This document shows, piece after piece, positions 56,702 through 63,594 of a stretch of 64,000 bases of DNA. The notes under the pieces were generated by a model. The model did not search any database, was not told where the DNA came from, and saw only the letters and a list, made by a program, of their open reading frames with translations. Source of the stretch: a bacterium (GTDB lineage: Bacteria; Zhuqueibacterota; Zhuqueibacteria; Residuimicrobiales; Krinioviventaceae); the NCBI GenBank assembly GCA_963693055.1, contig OY843751.1, forward strand, positions 448,001-512,000. The letters are read 5' to 3'. Both the position numbers and the translations under genes were made by a program. The first letter of the stretch is position 1. Each line of letters begins with the position of its first letter.

Positions 56702-56926
56702 AAGCCCCCACTATTTTTTAATTATCAGGGTTAATTTAGATACACCATAGCATAGGATTTATTTAAAAATATAATCAAAAATATGAGTGATTTAAAGAAC
56801 TTTTCGATATGTAAAGCATTATAACAGTAACACCAAGTTGATTTGTATTGTATTAATTGCTATTTTGAAAGATATATTGTAGTATTTTAGGGATTTTGAT
56901 TGGATAATAAAAAATACTGCAAAATT

Positions 56927-56954
56927 GGGAATAATACCGGATTCCGGTTGTCTA
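56927..56954 (+). promoter_or_regulatory. ECF-sigma-type promoter (putative autoregulatory)
   Basis: GGGAAT-N17-GTCTA; near-copy at 58629. Confidence 0.65.
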
Positions 56955-56972
56955 AATGTTAAAGGGCGAGTT

Positions 56973-57524
56973 ATAGAAAAGACTGACGCACAATTATTGC
57001 GTGAGGCGCGCGAGGAAAGTGGTGATTCTTTTAACGAGCTGGTTAGGAGGTACGAGTCCCGTGTAGCTGCGACCGTAGTGGGAATGTTGGGACGATGCCC
57101 TGAAGCAGATGACGTAGGCCAGGAAACGTTTATCCGGTTCTACAAAGCCATGCATGATTTTCGTGGCGATGCGGAATTGGGAACGTATTTGACACGGATC
57201 GCCATTAATTTGTCATTGAATGAATTGAAAAGGAGAAAACGCCGGTTTCAGGTGTTTCCCAAATCTACAGATTCAGTGCATGACATGACAGATGACAGCA
57301 TAAATCCTGATGCAGGTGACACCAAAACAGTGATCAACAAGGCTTTACAAAAGCTGGAACCGGATTTTAGATCAGTTATTGTACTGCGGCTTGTACAGGG
57401 ATATTCCACAAAAGAGTCAGCAGCAATGCTGAATATTCCCGAGGGAACCGTACTGTCACGGTTGGCCCGTGCGCAATTAAAGTTAAAAAAAATACTCGAA
57501 CCCTTAATGGGAGAGCAAGAATGA
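56973..57524 (+). CDS. ECF sigma-70 factor (start codon uncertain)
   Basis: DAQLL, ADDVGQETF, YLTRIAIN region 2; LNIPEGTVLSRLARA region 4. Confidence 0.9.
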   Translation: MEKTDAQLLREAREESGDSFNELVRRYESRVAATVVGMLGRCPEADDVGQETFIRFYKAMHDFRGDAELGTYLTRIAINLSLNELKRRKRRFQVFPKSTDSVHDMTDDSINPDAGDTKTVINKALQKLEPDFRSVIVLRLVQGYSTKESAAMLNIPEGTVLSRLARAQLKLKKILEPLMGEQE

Positions 57525-57958
57525 AGAAAATGCAGGAACTGTTAATACGATCTTTTGATCAGATCCTGTCAGTGAAGGAACAGCAGGAACTGGACCAGGC
57601 CCTGGAACAGTCAGAAGAGCTTCGCCAGGAAAAAGAACAGCTTGAAAGCATGCGAAATCTTTTATCAGCAGGGGCAGAAGAGTCTTTTCGGCCCATGTTT
57701 GCTGAACGGGTCATGAACCGGATAACAACCAAAAGTGCGCGGCAACCCACCAGTGAAATGGAGTTTTTTGATTCTCTTTTGCATATTTTTCGCAAAGTTG
57801 CCATTGCCGGTGCTATAGCAATTGTGGTGCTTGCTTCGGCTCAGTTGATTGTAAATAATCCATCTACAACAACAACTGCAACGAAGAATGTATCTGAAAT
57901 GTCATTGGATGATGTGCTGGTTTCCGCATTTATTTCCTCAATGGAGGATATACTATGA
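57521..57958 (+). CDS. Putative anti-sigma factor
   Basis: Overlaps the sigma stop codon; helical N-terminus, FAERVM, single TM. Confidence 0.75.
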   Translation: MKKMQELLIRSFDQILSVKEQQELDQALEQSEELRQEKEQLESMRNLLSAGAEESFRPMFAERVMNRITTKSARQPTSEMEFFDSLLHIFRKVAIAGAIAIVVLASAQLIVNNPSTTTTATKNVSEMSLDDVLVSAFISSMEDIL

Positions 57959-58473
57959 CCGTACAGACCAAATCTTCATTAATACTGTTAGTGACACTGC
58001 TTTTGGGGATAATGATTGGCGCCCTGGGAATGAACTTTTATAAAAATCAGAGGATGGTGCAATTCAAAGATTTCAGAGAGCGTGAAATGTTTATGGGACT
58101 GCATGAGCGTATTATTCAGCCCCATTCCGAAGCACAACGCGATTCTATTATGCAGGTGCTGGATAAATATTTACCCCGTTTTAAAGAATTGCATGAAAAA
58201 AATAAAGACGAGATAGCAGTTATTATAGATTCGTTGCAAAATGATCTAAAACCAATTTTATCTGAGGAACAATGGCAGCGATTGATTGAGCGGCGTGAAC
58301 GTATGGACCGTTGGGGCGGTCCGGACAAGTTTGGTCCTCCCCCCGGCGACAGACCTTTTCCCGGTCCACATGAGGGAAAAGACTGGAAAGATCGCAGACC
58401 TCCGGGGCCTAATGATATGCCCCCGCATGGAGGTGATGGCATGCGTCCGCAGCCCCCTCAAGCTCCTCAATAA
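57955..58473 (+). CDS. Membrane-anchored periplasmic accessory protein (Spy/CpxP-like helices, Pro/Gly tail)
   Basis: N-terminal TM, LSEEQW motif, Pro-rich tail; coupled to the anti-sigma gene. Confidence 0.6.
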   Translation: MTVQTKSSLILLVTLLLGIMIGALGMNFYKNQRMVQFKDFREREMFMGLHERIIQPHSEAQRDSIMQVLDKYLPRFKELHEKNKDEIAVIIDSLQNDLKPILSEEQWQRLIERRERMDRWGGPDKFGPPPGDRPFPGPHEGKDWKDRRPPGPNDMPPHGGDGMRPQPPQAPQ

Positions 58474-58489
58474 GCGTATATACAAATTT

Positions 58490-58526
58490 AAAAAGGTGGT
58501 TCGATAATTCGGAACACCTTTTTTTT
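58490..58526 (+). terminator. Intrinsic terminator
   Basis: aaaaaggtggttcg-ataatt-cggaacacc followed by a T run. Confidence 0.7.
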
Positions 58527-58628
58527 ATTAAAAAAAATAGTTCCGTTTTTCTTCGTTATGGCCCTAACCTCTTGTATATCTTGATAAATAGGTATATTGA
58601 ATTAATTGCAATGCATGTAACCTCTTTT

Positions 58629-58657
58629 GGGAATGTTACCGGATTTGGGATTGTCTA
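58629..58657 (+). promoter_or_regulatory. ECF-sigma-type promoter
   Basis: GGGAAT-N18-GTCTA, sharing taccggatt in the spacer with the 56927 copy. Confidence 0.65.
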
Positions 58658-58714
58658 ATTTTCGTAACAGGTAATAAAGGAGAATAATCAAATCATTTAC
58701 CAAAGGAGAAAATC

Positions 58715-59851
58715 ATGAAGAAAAGAGCTTTTATCAACACGGCGGTTACGATAATATTTTTGTTCGGGCTTTTATTTTTTGGGGAAGAAATTCTATTGGC
58801 TCAACCCGGTAATGGAATGGGGCATCACGATGATAAAGGAATGCACGCATCATTTTTTGAATTGCTCACAAAAGATCAGTTAGCGGAAATACAATCACTT
58901 GTTGAAACCCTGCGAGAAGCGGGCAGTGACCGTGAGGCGGTTCGTAAAGCTGTGGACGCCAAATTGGACGAGTGGGGTGTTGAGCGCCCGGAACCCCCTA
59001 AAGGTGGTGGACATGGTATGCATGGTGGTCCTTTTGCGGATCTGACAGAAGAACAGCGTGCCGAACTGGAGACGCTCGTTAAAACCCTGCGCGAGGCGGG
59101 CAGTGACCGTGAGGTGGTTCGTAAAGCTGTGGACGCCAAGCTGGACGAGTGGGGTATTGAACGCCTGGAACCTCCGGAAGGGGGAAGATATGGCGGTCCC
59201 GGTAAACACGGAATGCCTTTTAAAGATTTGTTGACCGATGAACAGCAAACAGAGCTGGAGACCATGATCAGTAGCATGAGAGATGCCGGCAGTAGTCGTG
59301 ACGAGGTTCACGAGGCAGTAGAGTCTAAACTGGAAGAGTGGGGTATAGAGATCCCTGAGAAACCAGATCAGAACATTCATGAAGCTATGAAGGGCTTGAC
59401 AGCGGATCAACGCAAACAGGTACACGAGCTGGTCAAAGACATGCATGAGCAGGGAGCTGAACGTAAAGTAATTCAGGACGCAGTCAAGAGTATGTTGGAA
59501 TCGTTTGGGATAGAAATGGGTGACAGTTCCGAATCCGGTGATTCGAAAGTCGAAACTCAAAACAATTATGGAAGTACAATCCTGGCTGCAAGCAATTTCC
59601 CCAATCCTTTTAATCCTGAAACCCGGATCAGTTTTGAGCTGGGTAAAGCCGCTAGAGTAAGAGTGTCTGTTTATAATGTTAAAGGCCAGCTGGTAAATAC
59701 CTTGATGGATGAGTATCGTAATGAAGGGACCTGTCAGGTACAATGGAACGGAACGCTGGGAAATGGGGATACCGCGCCTTCGGGTATGTATTTTTTTAAA
59801 ATAAATGCCGATGATGAAACATTAACTGAAAGCATGTTATTAATGAAATAA
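58715..59851 (+). CDS. Secreted protein with four helical repeats and a C-terminal FlgD-like/T9SS-type sorting domain
   Basis: LTxxQxxE...LRxAGxxRE.V..AV..KL.EWG repeats; NFPNPFNPET...SGMYF...MLLMK. Confidence 0.85.
   Translation: MKKRAFINTAVTIIFLFGLLFFGEEILLAQPGNGMGHHDDKGMHASFFELLTKDQLAEIQSLVETLREAGSDREAVRKAVDAKLDEWGVERPEPPKGGGHGMHGGPFADLTEEQRAELETLVKTLREAGSDREVVRKAVDAKLDEWGIERLEPPEGGRYGGPGKHGMPFKDLLTDEQQTELETMISSMRDAGSSRDEVHEAVESKLEEWGIEIPEKPDQNIHEAMKGLTADQRKQVHELVKDMHEQGAERKVIQDAVKSMLESFGIEMGDSSESGDSKVETQNNYGSTILAASNFPNPFNPETRISFELGKAARVRVSVYNVKGQLVNTLMDEYRNEGTCQVQWNGTLGNGDTAPSGMYFFKINADDETLTESMLLMK
58898..59175 (+). repeat. Intragenic direct repeat, 177 bp period
   Basis: aaaccctgcg.ga.gcgggcagtgaccgtgagg.ggttcgtaaagctgtggacgccaa..tggacgagtggggt present twice. 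Confidence 0.85.
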
Positions 59852-59956
59852 GGAAAATTTTCCGGTAGGTTTTGGAAAAAAGGCGGTTATTTCATATAGT
59901 ATTTACTAGAAGTAACCGGAAGTCAAACAAAGATTTTAAAACTTACCGGAGGACAA

Positions 59957-60784
59957 ATGTACAATACTCGTAGTAGTTTGTATGACAGGATATTAGAAAA
60001 AACACCCGAGCAAGTATTCATCAATTCTTTACGAAAAGAATTTGAATTATCACCGGCAGAAAGTAAAGGGATATTGGATTTAGCCAAGCAGTGTTTATTT
60101 GGCGAGGTTCCCCAGACAGTTGGTAAAATAAAATATATCTGCGCATCCACCAAGGCAAAACATGGCAAGCCCCTGGGTGAGCAGGAATTGAAAGAAGTAG
60201 AGTTAACACTGGATGCCGGTGTAGAAGATTTAAATGTATTAAAAGAAAGCGGTCCCAAGGCACTGCGCCAGTTAAAGGTCTTACGATTGACCGAAGAAGC
60301 CTGGGATCAGGAAGGTTCTTTGACACAAGAGGATTTGGCCCGGATCCTCCAGGTTACGAGCCGCACTGTACGCCAGGATATAAAGTCTTTGCAGACTGAT
60401 GGCAACTTTATTCACACGCGCGGAACAGACCATGACATCGGTCGGAGCTTGTCACACAAAAGCCACATTATTGAACTGTATTTGCAGGGAGACACATACG
60501 ATGCAATTATTCGTAAAAGTCGTCATAGCGCGTTTTCAATAAAACGATATGTGTGCAGCTTTGGCAGGCTGTTGTTATTACTGAATCATGGTATGCAGGA
60601 TATCAAAGAGATCAGTCGGTTATTAGGCCAAAGTGAGCGTTTGACCCGTGAGTACCTGGATATTTTTGAGCATCATAAACAGGGTGACAAATGGCCGCCG
60701 ATCTATGTAGAGTTATTGGAGCAATTAAAGGTGTTATACCCCTCGAAAAAAAAACAAACCAAGGAGGGGATCGATGAAGACTAA
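59957..60784 (+). CDS. DUF1670-like protein A1
   Basis: EAWDQEGSLTQEDLARIL HTH; TRG..HDIG..LSHK; RHS..SIKRY. Confidence 0.8.
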   Translation: MYNTRSSLYDRILEKTPEQVFINSLRKEFELSPAESKGILDLAKQCLFGEVPQTVGKIKYICASTKAKHGKPLGEQELKEVELTLDAGVEDLNVLKESGPKALRQLKVLRLTEEAWDQEGSLTQEDLARILQVTSRTVRQDIKSLQTDGNFIHTRGTDHDIGRSLSHKSHIIELYLQGDTYDAIIRKSRHSAFSIKRYVCSFGRLLLLLNHGMQDIKEISRLLGQSERLTREYLDIFEHHKQGDKWPPIYVELLEQLKVLYPSKKKQTKEGIDED

Positions 60785-61589
60785 GCCTTTAAATCGTTAT
60801 GAATCAATAGCTAAGCGTAGCTTTCAAAATGCGATTATTCGATTACTGGAAGAAAATTATAAAATGCTGGGAAGCCACAAAGTCATCCGGATGATTGCGG
60901 AAGATATTGTCGCATTGCAAAATGAATTTTATCCAGAGCTGGAAAAGAAAAGTTTTGGTCAGATTATCTGGCGGACAACCAAAGCGACAAACCGAAAGCC
61001 AAGCTATGGCACAAAAGCGGAAGATTATGAGGTTCAGACAGTTGTGCTACCGTTGGTAACAGATGCGGATATTGACAATCGTATCAAAAGCCATTATTCT
61101 TATCCCCCAAAAGATGGCAGTGCTAATTATGAAAAACAAACAGAACGGGATATTAAAGTAATGGCGCGGTTATGCAAGAGTGCGGCAGAACAGGGCGGCT
61201 GGTTGACAGGTGCAGAACTCAGTGTATTGTTGAATCGCTCATTAAACACTATTGGTCGGTATATGACAATTTATCATGAAACGCATGATGATATATTGCC
61301 GACTAAAGGAATGATGCTGGATCAGGGCAGTAAGCCGACGCATAAAGCCGCAATTATAGATTTGTACGAGCAGGGATATCCCGAACCGGATATCGCCCGG
61401 ATTACAAATCACACAATTGAATCAACGAGTCGGTATTTAAAGAGTTACAAGAACGTAAAATCATTATTGGAAAAAGGTTTTAATTTAATGGAAATGGTAA
61501 GAATAACCGGATTAGGACGGAGTACAATATTACAATACCGTGATCTGGTTTATCATTATCATTCAGATTTAATACAAAAGAAAACTTGA
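60774..61589 (+). CDS. DUF1670-like protein B1
   Basis: SAAEQGGWLT..ELS.LL; PTKG...D.G..PTHK; NHT..S.SRY; RBS aaggagg. Confidence 0.8.
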   Translation: MKTKPLNRYESIAKRSFQNAIIRLLEENYKMLGSHKVIRMIAEDIVALQNEFYPELEKKSFGQIIWRTTKATNRKPSYGTKAEDYEVQTVVLPLVTDADIDNRIKSHYSYPPKDGSANYEKQTERDIKVMARLCKSAAEQGGWLTGAELSVLLNRSLNTIGRYMTIYHETHDDILPTKGMMLDQGSKPTHKAAIIDLYEQGYPEPDIARITNHTIESTSRYLKSYKNVKSLLEKGFNLMEMVRITGLGRSTILQYRDLVYHYHSDLIQKKT

Positions 61590-61620
61590 AAATTTGAAAA
61601 GGAATTAATAGGTTAGGTTG

Positions 61621-61680
61621 TCATTGTTTTTCAGCTAACTCCAGTCGCCCTACGAGCTCCTTTCGTTAGCTGAAAAAATG
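61621..61680. other. Long stem-loop downstream of B1, inside element 1
   Basis: tttttcagctaac...gttagctgaaaaa 13 bp stem enclosing tccagtcgccctacgagctcctttc. Confidence 0.7.
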
Positions 61681-61862
61681 AATAAATGTTCTAATCTTAA
61701 AAACAACCTACCGGAAATATTTCCTAAACGTAAATAGTATCATATGACCAGAGGAGAAAAAGAAATTTATAAAACCCCCTAAAAATACAACGGAGCGTCA
61801 GATCATTAATAAATTTGGTGATCTGTCATTCTGAAAGTAATAAAAGGGAAATATAAAAGCAA

Positions 61863-62687
61863 CTAATTGTTCTTTGAAAGATTCAACTGACTCCTTTGAT
61901 TTTTAATTTTATCAGGCAAAAGATCAACATATTGTTGTATGACACGTTTGGAAAGTCTTGCCAGCTGGCTGATTTGATCAAGGTTTTTAATGTCATGCTT
62001 CCAAAGTAATTCAACACGATGGTAATCTTTGATATACCTGTCAACCGCTTCGTTGCTGTGTTTGGTTTTCAAAGCGATTTCGGGAGTGAGATATCCCTCA
62101 AGATACAGAGTGATAATTTCGCGTTTATGAGTAATAGCGCCGGAAAGATCATGGATGTTGCCACGCGTTGGTAAGAGATGCCCTTCTTTTTGGATTTCAT
62201 TTACATATTTACTGACAACGGCATCACAGACACCGAGTAACATAGCCAGGTCAAGTTGAGTAAGCAGAGCACCTTGATCAAAAGCTTCATCAACCCAACG
62301 TTTGAGGCGTCTTTTCCTTAAAGTTTTGGAATCAAAACCATGCGCGATATGAGAAGTATCCTGATCAGTAATGAAAGAGAGGACAACGGGTTTCATTCGG
62401 GTAGCGGCAATACTTTTTCCGCGTTTGGGGTATTCATCGACAGGAACAGCCATCCAGACGAGTTGCCCATAGTGAATATGGTGCAAGTCATCATCAATAG
62501 AGGAGACAAGGAAATAGTCATCAATGATTTTAAGGATATCATCAATGATGGCATTGGCAGTGATGGCTCCTTTGTCATAGCCATAGCTATTCAAAAAGTT
62601 GTACAGTAGTAACTGCTTGAGATCTTTATCTTTAAGTCGTCTCATTTTTTTGAGTTGAATTTGTTCTTTAGTCAAAGGTTTACTCAT
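61863..62687 (-). CDS. DUF1670-like protein B2
   Basis: EAFDQGALLTQLDLAMLL; PTRG..HD...ITHK; KHS..AVDRY; RBS aggagg. Confidence 0.8.
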   Translation of the reverse strand: MSKPLTKEQIQLKKMRRLKDKDLKQLLLYNFLNSYGYDKGAITANAIIDDILKIIDDYFLVSSIDDDLHHIHYGQLVWMAVPVDEYPKRGKSIAATRMKPVVLSFITDQDTSHIAHGFDSKTLRKRRLKRWVDEAFDQGALLTQLDLAMLLGVCDAVVSKYVNEIQKEGHLLPTRGNIHDLSGAITHKREIITLYLEGYLTPEIALKTKHSNEAVDRYIKDYHRVELLWKHDIKNLDQISQLARLSKRVIQQYVDLLPDKIKNQRSQLNLSKNN

Positions 62688-63519
62688 TTTCTTTGCCTCC
62701 TGATAGATGTTGAGGAATGGATTTTTTTTTCGCGTCGCCACCAGGTTCCGCAGGAGATAACAGATCGTTTAATCGCGTATTGTTTTGTTGAAGATAGGTT
62801 TGGTAGAGTTGGATATACTCGCGCACCAGGCGGTCGGATTTCTTTGCAATGAGTCGAATCTGGTTCGGAGAGAAATTTTCCTTGTATAAAAGGGCGATCT
62901 GCATAAAGTCAGCGAGGTAACGTTTGATGCTGGTTTCAGAATGATTGGTTTTTTGTTCTATTTCTGAAAAGGTATAACCTTTAAGATACAGATCAATAAT
63001 GATGGTTTTATGAGACAGTCCGGGACCCATGTCATGTTTCATACCTCGTGTCATGATAAACATACCGTGATGACGGAGATGATAAATGTCACGTTTAACA
63101 GTGGCCGGACTGGTGGTTAAAAGCATTGCCAGGTCTTCATAGCTGAGTAAAGCACCCTGATCATAGGCTTGTCGAGTCAGACGGGCGATCCGGTGTCGTC
63201 TAAGTCCGGCAAGGCCATAATTAGCCAGGGCTTGCAGATCTGTATTAAAGTCAATTAGTTTGAGACGGACCGTAAGCTTTCGGGTTAATCTGATATGTTT
63301 GCCGGCTGGTTCTTCAGCGGCAACAGCTTCATAAGCGACTTCACCTCCTGATAATGAAATGTTGGAATGTTCCTGAAAGTATTGGTCAAATTGTTGATAG
63401 TAAGCTTCGGCAATAATAGGAGTCAAATTGAAATCCTGAGACAGTTTTTGGACAATAGCGTTTTTAGCTGTCTTGGATTCGAGTCTTTTTAAACCATAAT
63501 TATTTTTAACATCTGCCAT
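62680..63519 (-). CDS. DUF1670-like protein A2
   Basis: QAYDQGALLSYEDLAMLL; TRG..HDMG..LSHK; NHS..SIKRY; RBS aaggag before ATG 63519. Confidence 0.8.
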   Translation of the reverse strand: MADVKNNYGLKRLESKTAKNAIVQKLSQDFNLTPIIAEAYYQQFDQYFQEHSNISLSGGEVAYEAVAAEEPAGKHIRLTRKLTVRLKLIDFNTDLQALANYGLAGLRRHRIARLTRQAYDQGALLSYEDLAMLLTTSPATVKRDIYHLRHHGMFIMTRGMKHDMGPGLSHKTIIIDLYLKGYTFSEIEQKTNHSETSIKRYLADFMQIALLYKENFSPNQIRLIAKKSDRLVREYIQLYQTYLQQNNTRLNDLLSPAEPGGDAKKKSIPQHLSGGKENE

Positions 63520-63594
63520 AAGAATCTCCTTATTTCTGTTTTTATTAAAACAATGATTCCTATGGTCATATGCACTAAACTTTAAATAGTTTAT

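Follow-up and report, generated by a model that had tools for sequence, protein, structure and literature searches.

A conserved run of nine adenines at the overlap of paired DUF1670 genes, a candidate site of A-B protein fusion in two putatively mobile bacterial elements

Paired DUF1670 genes and their A9 runs

The window analyzed in this study is a stretch of 64,000 nucleotides (nt) from a bacterial genome (assembly GCA_963693055.1, contig OY843751.1, positions 448,001-512,000, forward strand), and it contains two elements, each made up of two overlapping DUF1670 genes, A and B, with a run of exactly nine A residues (A9) near the end of gene A. Element 1 lies on the plus strand (59846-61733; 1888 bp from AA core to AA core) and has seven copies in the genome. 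Its gene A (59957-60784) encodes a protein of 275 residues with a DUF1670 domain and a winged helix-turn-helix (HTH) region, and its gene B (60774-61589; 271 residues, DUF1670) lies in +1 with respect to A, behind an AAGGAGG read from the sequence as Shine-Dalgarno (SD)-like (60761-60767). Sub-terminal inverted repeats of 21 nt, 90% identical, are found at 59851-59871 on the left and 61705-61725 on the right. Element 2 (61732-63585; 1854 bp, six genomic copies) occupies the same type of site in the opposite orientation, on the minus strand, and is organized in the same way, with gene A (62680-63519; 279 residues from the ATG at 63519, DUF1670), gene B in +1 relative to A (61863-62687; 274 residues, DUF1670), an SD-like AGGAGG likewise read from the sequence (62696-62701) and inverted repeats of 15 nt, 93% identical, at 63558-63572 on the left and 61741-61755 on the right. 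All four proteins scored 160-211 bits against DUF1670 (PF07900; gathering threshold 25 bits), and the domain covers residues 25-258 of 271 in the B protein of element 1 and 34-256 of 274 in that of element 2. The two A proteins share 34% identity, and five of the six pairings among the four proteins fall at 29-34%; judged by their sequences, A and B are paralogs.

In element 1 the A9 run (60746-60754), preceded by CG at 60744-60745, is read in the frame of gene A as AAA AAA AAA (Lys-Lys-Lys, KKK), and the ATG of B follows 19 nt past the run. In element 2 the run appears on the plus strand as T9 (62722-62730), also adjoined by CG; it again encodes KKK in gene A, and the ATG of B lies 34 nt beyond it. 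The +1 frame is free of stops from before the run up to the ATG of B in element 1, and is open from the run to the ATG in element 2. These are the only two runs of at least nine A or T in the window, and both are predicted slip sites. When one A was deleted in silico, open frames of 543 and 551 residues were obtained, and when one A was inserted, a stop was reached within a few codons. A sequence-only reading of the window had described a KKK-encoding A9 run near the end of gene A in both elements, with B in an open +1 frame and with its own ribosome-binding site, and both statements were borne out.

The seven copies of element 1 and the six of element 2 account for all 26 DUF1670 matches in the genome. 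The run is exactly A9 in 13/13 of these copies, including an element-1 copy of only 92% identity. Contigs from three sequencing runs of one sample cross both A9 runs with no indel listed; these contigs may be the assembly's own source and drop rare variants, so that they argue only against an assembly error. The host appears to avoid such runs, since in its long open reading frames (ORFs) outside the elements only 16 of 336 KKK tripeptides are written AAA AAA AAA, compared with 162 expected (AAA usage 0.785).

The A-B junction in relatives

A total of 114 A-B junctions were found in the relatives (loci L001-L130) and the window. Nine of them (L027, L053, L087, L089, L090, L091, L094, L098 and L127) were broken, partial, fused, or had no B start near the A stop and were dropped; the remaining 105, among which some loci were fetched twice, formed 46 clusters at 90% identity. 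Element-2-like relatives, with GC contents of 35-57%, have B in +1 in 19/19 clusters, and their run lengths are 7 (2 clusters), 8 (4 clusters) and 9 (13 clusters). All 50 tail lysine codons in this set are AAA (35.1 expected from each element's own usage), and a run of at least eight occurs elsewhere in the genes in only one of the 19 clusters. Eight clusters of element-1-like relatives came from genomes, six in +1 and two in -1, with runs of 8-9. A metagenome scan added at least 73 further element-1-like loci, of which 62 were usable and gave 49 clusters and 11 were dropped. Thirty-seven of the 49 clusters are in +1 (A9 30, A10 2, A8 5) and 12 are in -1 (A8 10, A6 2), with runs of at least eight in 47. 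Lysine codons in these tails are AAA in 127/144 cases (64.7 expected), rising to 96/98 for the first two lysines (43.6 expected). Among the 11 dropped loci the same patterns were seen in three, namely L156 (-1, A8) and L168 and L195 (+1, A9). The sequence-only reading had anticipated that homologs would keep AAA lysine codons, as both sets do.

It had also anticipated that no stops would interrupt the +1 frame between the run and the start of B. The frame of B is open from run to ATG in 19/19 element-2-like clusters (11.6 expected) and in 49/49 metagenomic element-1-like clusters (37.6 expected), the expectations being taken from linker shuffles that retained the SD and the open A frame. The linker between run and B varies from 10 to 34 nt. 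At L091 and L205 the A frame ends upstream of B's SD and the +1 frame is still open. One position of the element-2-like linker (position 9) is U in 20/21 junctions; it is a wobble position for A, and the residue specified there in the +1 frame is hydrophobic in 20/21. No consensus pairs were predicted in the 21 element-2-like junctions and no Rfam match was obtained at the junction; hairpins predicted from single sequences vary.

Two parts of the sequence-only reading did not hold. The CG before the run had been taken as a conserved part of the signal, but relatives have GCT, TCT, GCG, TCG and other contexts at this place, and CG was therefore rejected as incidental. The +1 placement of B is likewise not universal in the family, since many relatives are in -1 and carry A-AAA-AAG. 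In the element-1 clade, with two distant rows included, runs of at least nine were found in 35/43 rows in +1 and in 0/16 rows in -1. The third lysine codon is AAA in 30/34 KKK tails in +1 and AAG in 10/10 tails in -1, and A-AAA-AAG is present in 10 of the 12 -1 clusters of element-1 relatives. This -1 arrangement was not found in the window, where both elements need +1 and have no AAG at the run. On a quick maximum-likelihood tree the direction switches eight times, three of which are forced by well-supported branches. Mixed direction among orthologs is used as a criterion for transcriptional slippage by Antonov et al. (PMC3711429), and A-AAA-AAG is described as a motif of high -1 ribosomal frameshifting efficiency (PMC4066793), so the -1 relatives may use the ribosome.

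A predicted A-B fusion and alternative readings

Natural in-frame A-B proteins, which the sequence-only reading had proposed to look for among homologs, do exist. One-gene proteins in A-then-B order make up 66 of the 81 proteins examined from a profile search, most of them without a KK linker, with 64 falling into one set of 512-566 residues. Several clusters of this set are multi-member and multi-source, for example one of 11 members with 544-545 residues. The family motifs are kept in both halves, and in 61/64 fusions the second half has Lys where the first half has Arg; B has Lys at that position in 8/8 element-1-like clusters as well. When this hard-fused lineage was searched for in 401 genomes, only split-type relatives were found, in five genomes; the lineage is described here from its proteins. 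Seven singleton fusions run through a KK junction (P0001-P0005, P0241 and P0273), five near element 2, one near element 1 and one in another lineage. In a third form of fusion a degenerate DUF1670-like domain stands ahead of an A-like domain (about 520 residues), and triples of 930-952 residues also occur. The three-domain branch comprises P0056, P0057 and P0007-P0010, and the ~520-residue forms inspected end in a lysine-rich tail. DUF1670 is also used outside these elements, as it matches within the 1200-residue proteins P0274 and P0275, which carry TPR and AAA-type domains.

Both paralogs contain an invariant Arg, His-Lys, His and Arg-Tyr, and because A and B are the only genes of the element and share these residues, they are probably two subunits of its recombination machinery. 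Among 17 aligned B proteins a single acidic residue is invariant. The idea that DUF1670 is a tyrosine recombinase, suggested by a likeness of motifs, was not borne out by sequence or fold searches, and the structure models contained only winged-helix and HTH pieces. When solved structures were searched by sequence, no match fell under E 0.04; Foldseek on PDB returned nothing under 0.001, VIA-align only HTH-sized matches (Z up to 6.4 and 6.5) and a viral structure library only TM-scores of 0.22 or below, results that exclude no fold. NCBIfam, PHROGs and Atlas returned no catalytic family, with only HTH or regulator-type hits. The predicted A/B complex of element 2 had an ipSAE of 0.37, with 0.00 for the best of three controls; the model runs share at least 54% of contacts, and the pLDDT of the partner is at least 70. 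The mark for the complex score is reached by 116/157 solved pairs and 2/215 mismatched pairs. The modelled contact between A and B is weakly supported, because scores of 0.60 or below at the mark comprise only 18 of the 157 solved pairs together with both mismatches. The model of the natural fusion P0002 (pLDDT 70.7, pTM 0.31, with a low-confidence linker) is uninformative on domain packing.

From these observations we propose that the A9 run is a conserved site at which RNA polymerase would lose one A in a minority of transcripts. Transcripts carrying A8 would be translated into a single A-B protein of about 545-550 residues, and unslipped transcripts into free A, together with free B from its own start. 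The covalent A-B form could then take the place of an A/B heterodimer that acts at the ends of the element, with the slip frequency setting its amount. We infer both the slippage itself and the polymerase, rather than the ribosome, as its agent. A programmed A-B fusion by either route, polymerase or ribosome, is in our judgment quite probable from the comparative pattern, and polymerase slippage at A9 as its source is the reading we favor, with somewhat less assurance. The programmed fusion put forward in the sequence-only reading thus stands where its comparative predictions are concerned and falters in a Poribacteria clade, where runs are short and without a clear codon signal.

Several points weigh against this proposal. 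The Poribacteria group (nine clusters and L092, binned by threshold) has runs of 5-8 that merge into the SD, and its lysine codons are AAA in 14/22 cases (13.4 expected), so that the synonymous conservation is absent there. Its +1 copies L103, L107 and L108 group at 90% identity with -1 copies, and close clusters mix members in +1, in -1 and fused. In addition, L021 has only A5 and L087 no run. For the link between direction and motif only three independent pairs lie on well-supported branches, none contrary (p = 0.25). The openness test is without power for the eight element-1-like genome clusters (8 observed, 7.0 expected), and the shuffle probabilities are overstated because kin are not independent. 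A start codon of its own, close to the stop of A, was found for B in 46/46 clusters kept (45 ATG, 1 GTG), and fusion is thus dispensable for the production of B. Identity between the hard-fused lineage and the element-2-like fusion is only 25-28%, and the KK-junction fusions may be slips of assembly or replication, since each is one sequence on one contig.

Part of this evidence would suit a reading without any functional fusion, in which the run is a basic tail combined with an A-rich translation enhancer or a ribosome pause that couples A to B, and the frame follows from the stop/start overlap. The universal start and SD of B and the mixed frames of the Poribacteria copies fit such coupling; so does the linker, whose U at position 9 could pair with B's SD in 15/21 junctions and whose summed amino-acid conservation, 2.2 in the +1 frame and 2.9 in the A frame, does not favor +1. 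But a lysine tail needs no AAA codons, and the host avoids AAA AAA AAA. Neither the stop-free B frames, nor the switch between AAA and AAG with direction, nor the loci where A stops before the SD would be predicted by coupling; of the six sequences in which the SD pairing is broken, five still have a hydrophobic +1 residue, and no consensus RNA structure was predicted at the junction. We consider this reading improbable. Another possibility is that the fusion is real and made by the ribosome, through a +1 slide or shift on AAA-AAA-AAA here and a -1 shift on A-AAA-AAG in the -1 relatives. The run starts nearly always in codon phase 0, the -1 relatives carry the efficient motif noted above, and Escherichia coli ribosomes slide on iterated AAA codons (PMC4363877); the switch of motif with direction could itself reflect two ribosomal modes, or one polymerase and one ribosomal mode. 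However, a requirement of the protein for KK at this place would also put the run in phase 0, and the run starts in phase 1 or 2 in L006, L054, L060, L066, L068, L146 and L148. No conserved stimulatory structure was found in the 21 element-2-like junctions, and the one tested case of A9 with +1 consulted, IS1447, is transcriptional. A purely ribosomal origin is in our view unlikely, if slightly more credible than coupling. The fusion might also be supplied at the DNA level, by replication slippage giving rare fused (A8) or dead (A10) copies. L088 is A10 with two A9 copies in the same genome, L055, a broken copy, has A8, L127 is a fusion whose companions are split, and the seven singleton KK-junction fusions would fit as well, but nine A's stand in all 13 host-genome copies, only 1/43 element-2-like junction rows (some loci fetched twice) is out of +1, and 0/62 metagenomic element-1-like junctions are fused. 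Such a switch therefore seems to us very unlikely.

Polymerase slippage at the A9 run, if it takes place, would join two paralogous subunits with separate starts. The synonymous switch with direction within one clade offers a natural test set for polymerase slippage and ribosomal shifting, and the one-gene lineage a ready single-chain construct. The proposal also shows which forms (A, B and A-B) a reconstitution of element movement must supply, in a system with no recognized transposase, at loci that annotation pipelines label as two hypothetical genes. A broader view can be offered tentatively, and we think it rather less probable than its opposite: that the DUF1670 elements form a class of site-specific mobile DNA not yet described, that the cutting-and-joining enzyme is an A/B paralog pair without a known catalytic fold, that covalent A-B is its active or regulating form, and that lineages switch repeatedly among loss of an A from A9, an A-AAA-AAG -1 shift and a single gene. 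If true, this would be a natural single-chain form of a new recombinase whose insertion at the final codon leaves secretion-tagged genes undamaged.

Insertion sites and comparison with known systems

The genomic copies are near-identical except for the one at 92%, and only the dinucleotide AA is common to both ends of every copy. With the empty sites rebuilt, the insertion point is the terminal Lys codon of genes with a FlgD-Ig / Por secretion tail in 7/7 copies of element 1 and 4/6 copies of element 2, and the Lys and stop of the target are restored by the element end. Eleven of the 13 copies thus directly occupy a terminal Lys codon, and a twelfth, adjacent to element 1, uses the same core; one element-2 copy (C1:6090299) is outside a secretion-tail site. 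In the window element 2 shares its AA core with element 1, back to back, the right ends of both using the same crossover dinucleotide (61732-61733). We infer recent mobility of the elements because of this pattern of copies and insertion sites.

A second tandem pair of elements, about 70 bp apart, is present near G000:C1:1348200 of the host genome. About 121 ORF ends of this genome fit a rough secretion-tail Lys-stop pattern, and therefore only about a tenth of the candidate targets are occupied. Orphan element-1-like left ends were seen at G000:C1:1730447 (+), 3844075 (-) and 5975648 (+), with a weaker one at 5684749 (-); the first three coincide with the Lys-stop of secretion-tail-like genes and are not followed by DUF1670 genes, and such ends are likely scars of older insertions. 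At G000:C1:333440 an orphan element-1 right end, possibly an adjacent deletion, is joined to a secretion-tail-like gene at a Ser/Thr-Gly motif. The DNA of this motif resembles the inverted repeat of the element, a hint that one HTH recognizes both the inverted repeat and the motif upstream in the target. A hairpin with arms of about 12 bp (61625-61678) is located in the non-coding DNA at the 3' end of element 1; no Rfam match was obtained for it.

The target host gene in the window (58715-59851, plus strand) has a FlgD-Ig / Por secretion-tail C-terminus whose Lys-stop is rebuilt by the left end of element 1. It carries three repeats of 59-63 residues with Metal_resist / LTXXQ-like Pfam hits and stands in a region (56925-59851) with genes that we take, from the appearance of their sequences, to encode an extracytoplasmic function (ECF)-sigma-like protein, an anti-sigma-like protein and a small membrane or periplasmic protein; together with the target they are likely to form a stress-response unit.

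Relatives of the elements were found in 33 of 167 genomes of the host phylum, and, among the best 80 of 253 matches, in records named KSB1, Calditrichota, Ignavibacteria, Bacteroidetes, Cloacimonadota, Neomarinimicrobiota, Poribacteria and others. With the sequence patterns used, no relatives were detected in viral contigs. In the sources searched, the Pfam family DUF1670 (PF07900) is not linked to any function, mobility or recoding, and no paper on it or its targeting was found, subscription journals and ISfinder lying outside the sources covered.

In the IS3 family of insertion sequences (ISs), OrfB, a DDE catalytic domain, has no relation to OrfA, and insertion duplicates 3-4 bp of target at varied sites. 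Membership of the present elements in this family was rejected, as B is a DUF1670 paralog of A with one invariant acidic residue and not a DDE domain, and only the AA core, not a 3-4 bp duplication at varied sites, is common to both ends. The OrfAB proteins of IS1 and IS3 are made by -1 ribosomal frameshifting at motifs of the A-AAA-AAG type. The -1 relatives of element 1 are like them in carrying A-AAA-AAG at the junction, whereas in the window both elements require a +1 shift and their runs lack AAG codons.

The closest comparison is with IS1447, an IS3-family element of Clostridium thermocellum, in which OrfAB is produced when one A of an A9 run is lost (PMC6211511). Slippage there amounts to about 16% in either direction, the full transposase corresponds to the +1 product alone, seven A's suffice for slippage, and relatives keep runs of 7-9 A (PMC6211511). 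The elements described here resemble IS1447 in having two overlapping ORFs, an A9 run and the downstream ORF in +1, but differ in that A and B are paralogous DUF1670 proteins, that insertion is site-specific at an AA core, and that no conserved stem-loop was found at the run in the 21 element-2-like junctions. IS elements with runs of 8-10 A in Deinococcus, Nostoc and others, and selection in host genes against slippage-prone runs, were reported by Baranov et al. in 2005 (PMC1088944), and IS630-type clusters in +1 and -1 by Antonov et al. in 2013 (PMC3711429). DUF1670 is not named in the portions of text or the two supplement files available from these studies. The present elements share with those ISs a conserved poly-A run at the ORF overlap, host avoidance and mixed direction; they differ in the separate starts of the two halves and in the existence of a fully fused lineage.

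Outside the Poribacteria group, the comparative features of transcriptional slippage of the IS1447 and Baranov type, namely a conserved run, synonymous conservation, an open frame and mixed direction, are all found at the DUF1670 junctions. Insertion elements in which poly-A slippage joins two ORFs are already known; distinctive here are halves that are paralogs with a start each, a motif that changes with direction within one clade, a hard-fused sister lineage, and an element with no recognized transposase.

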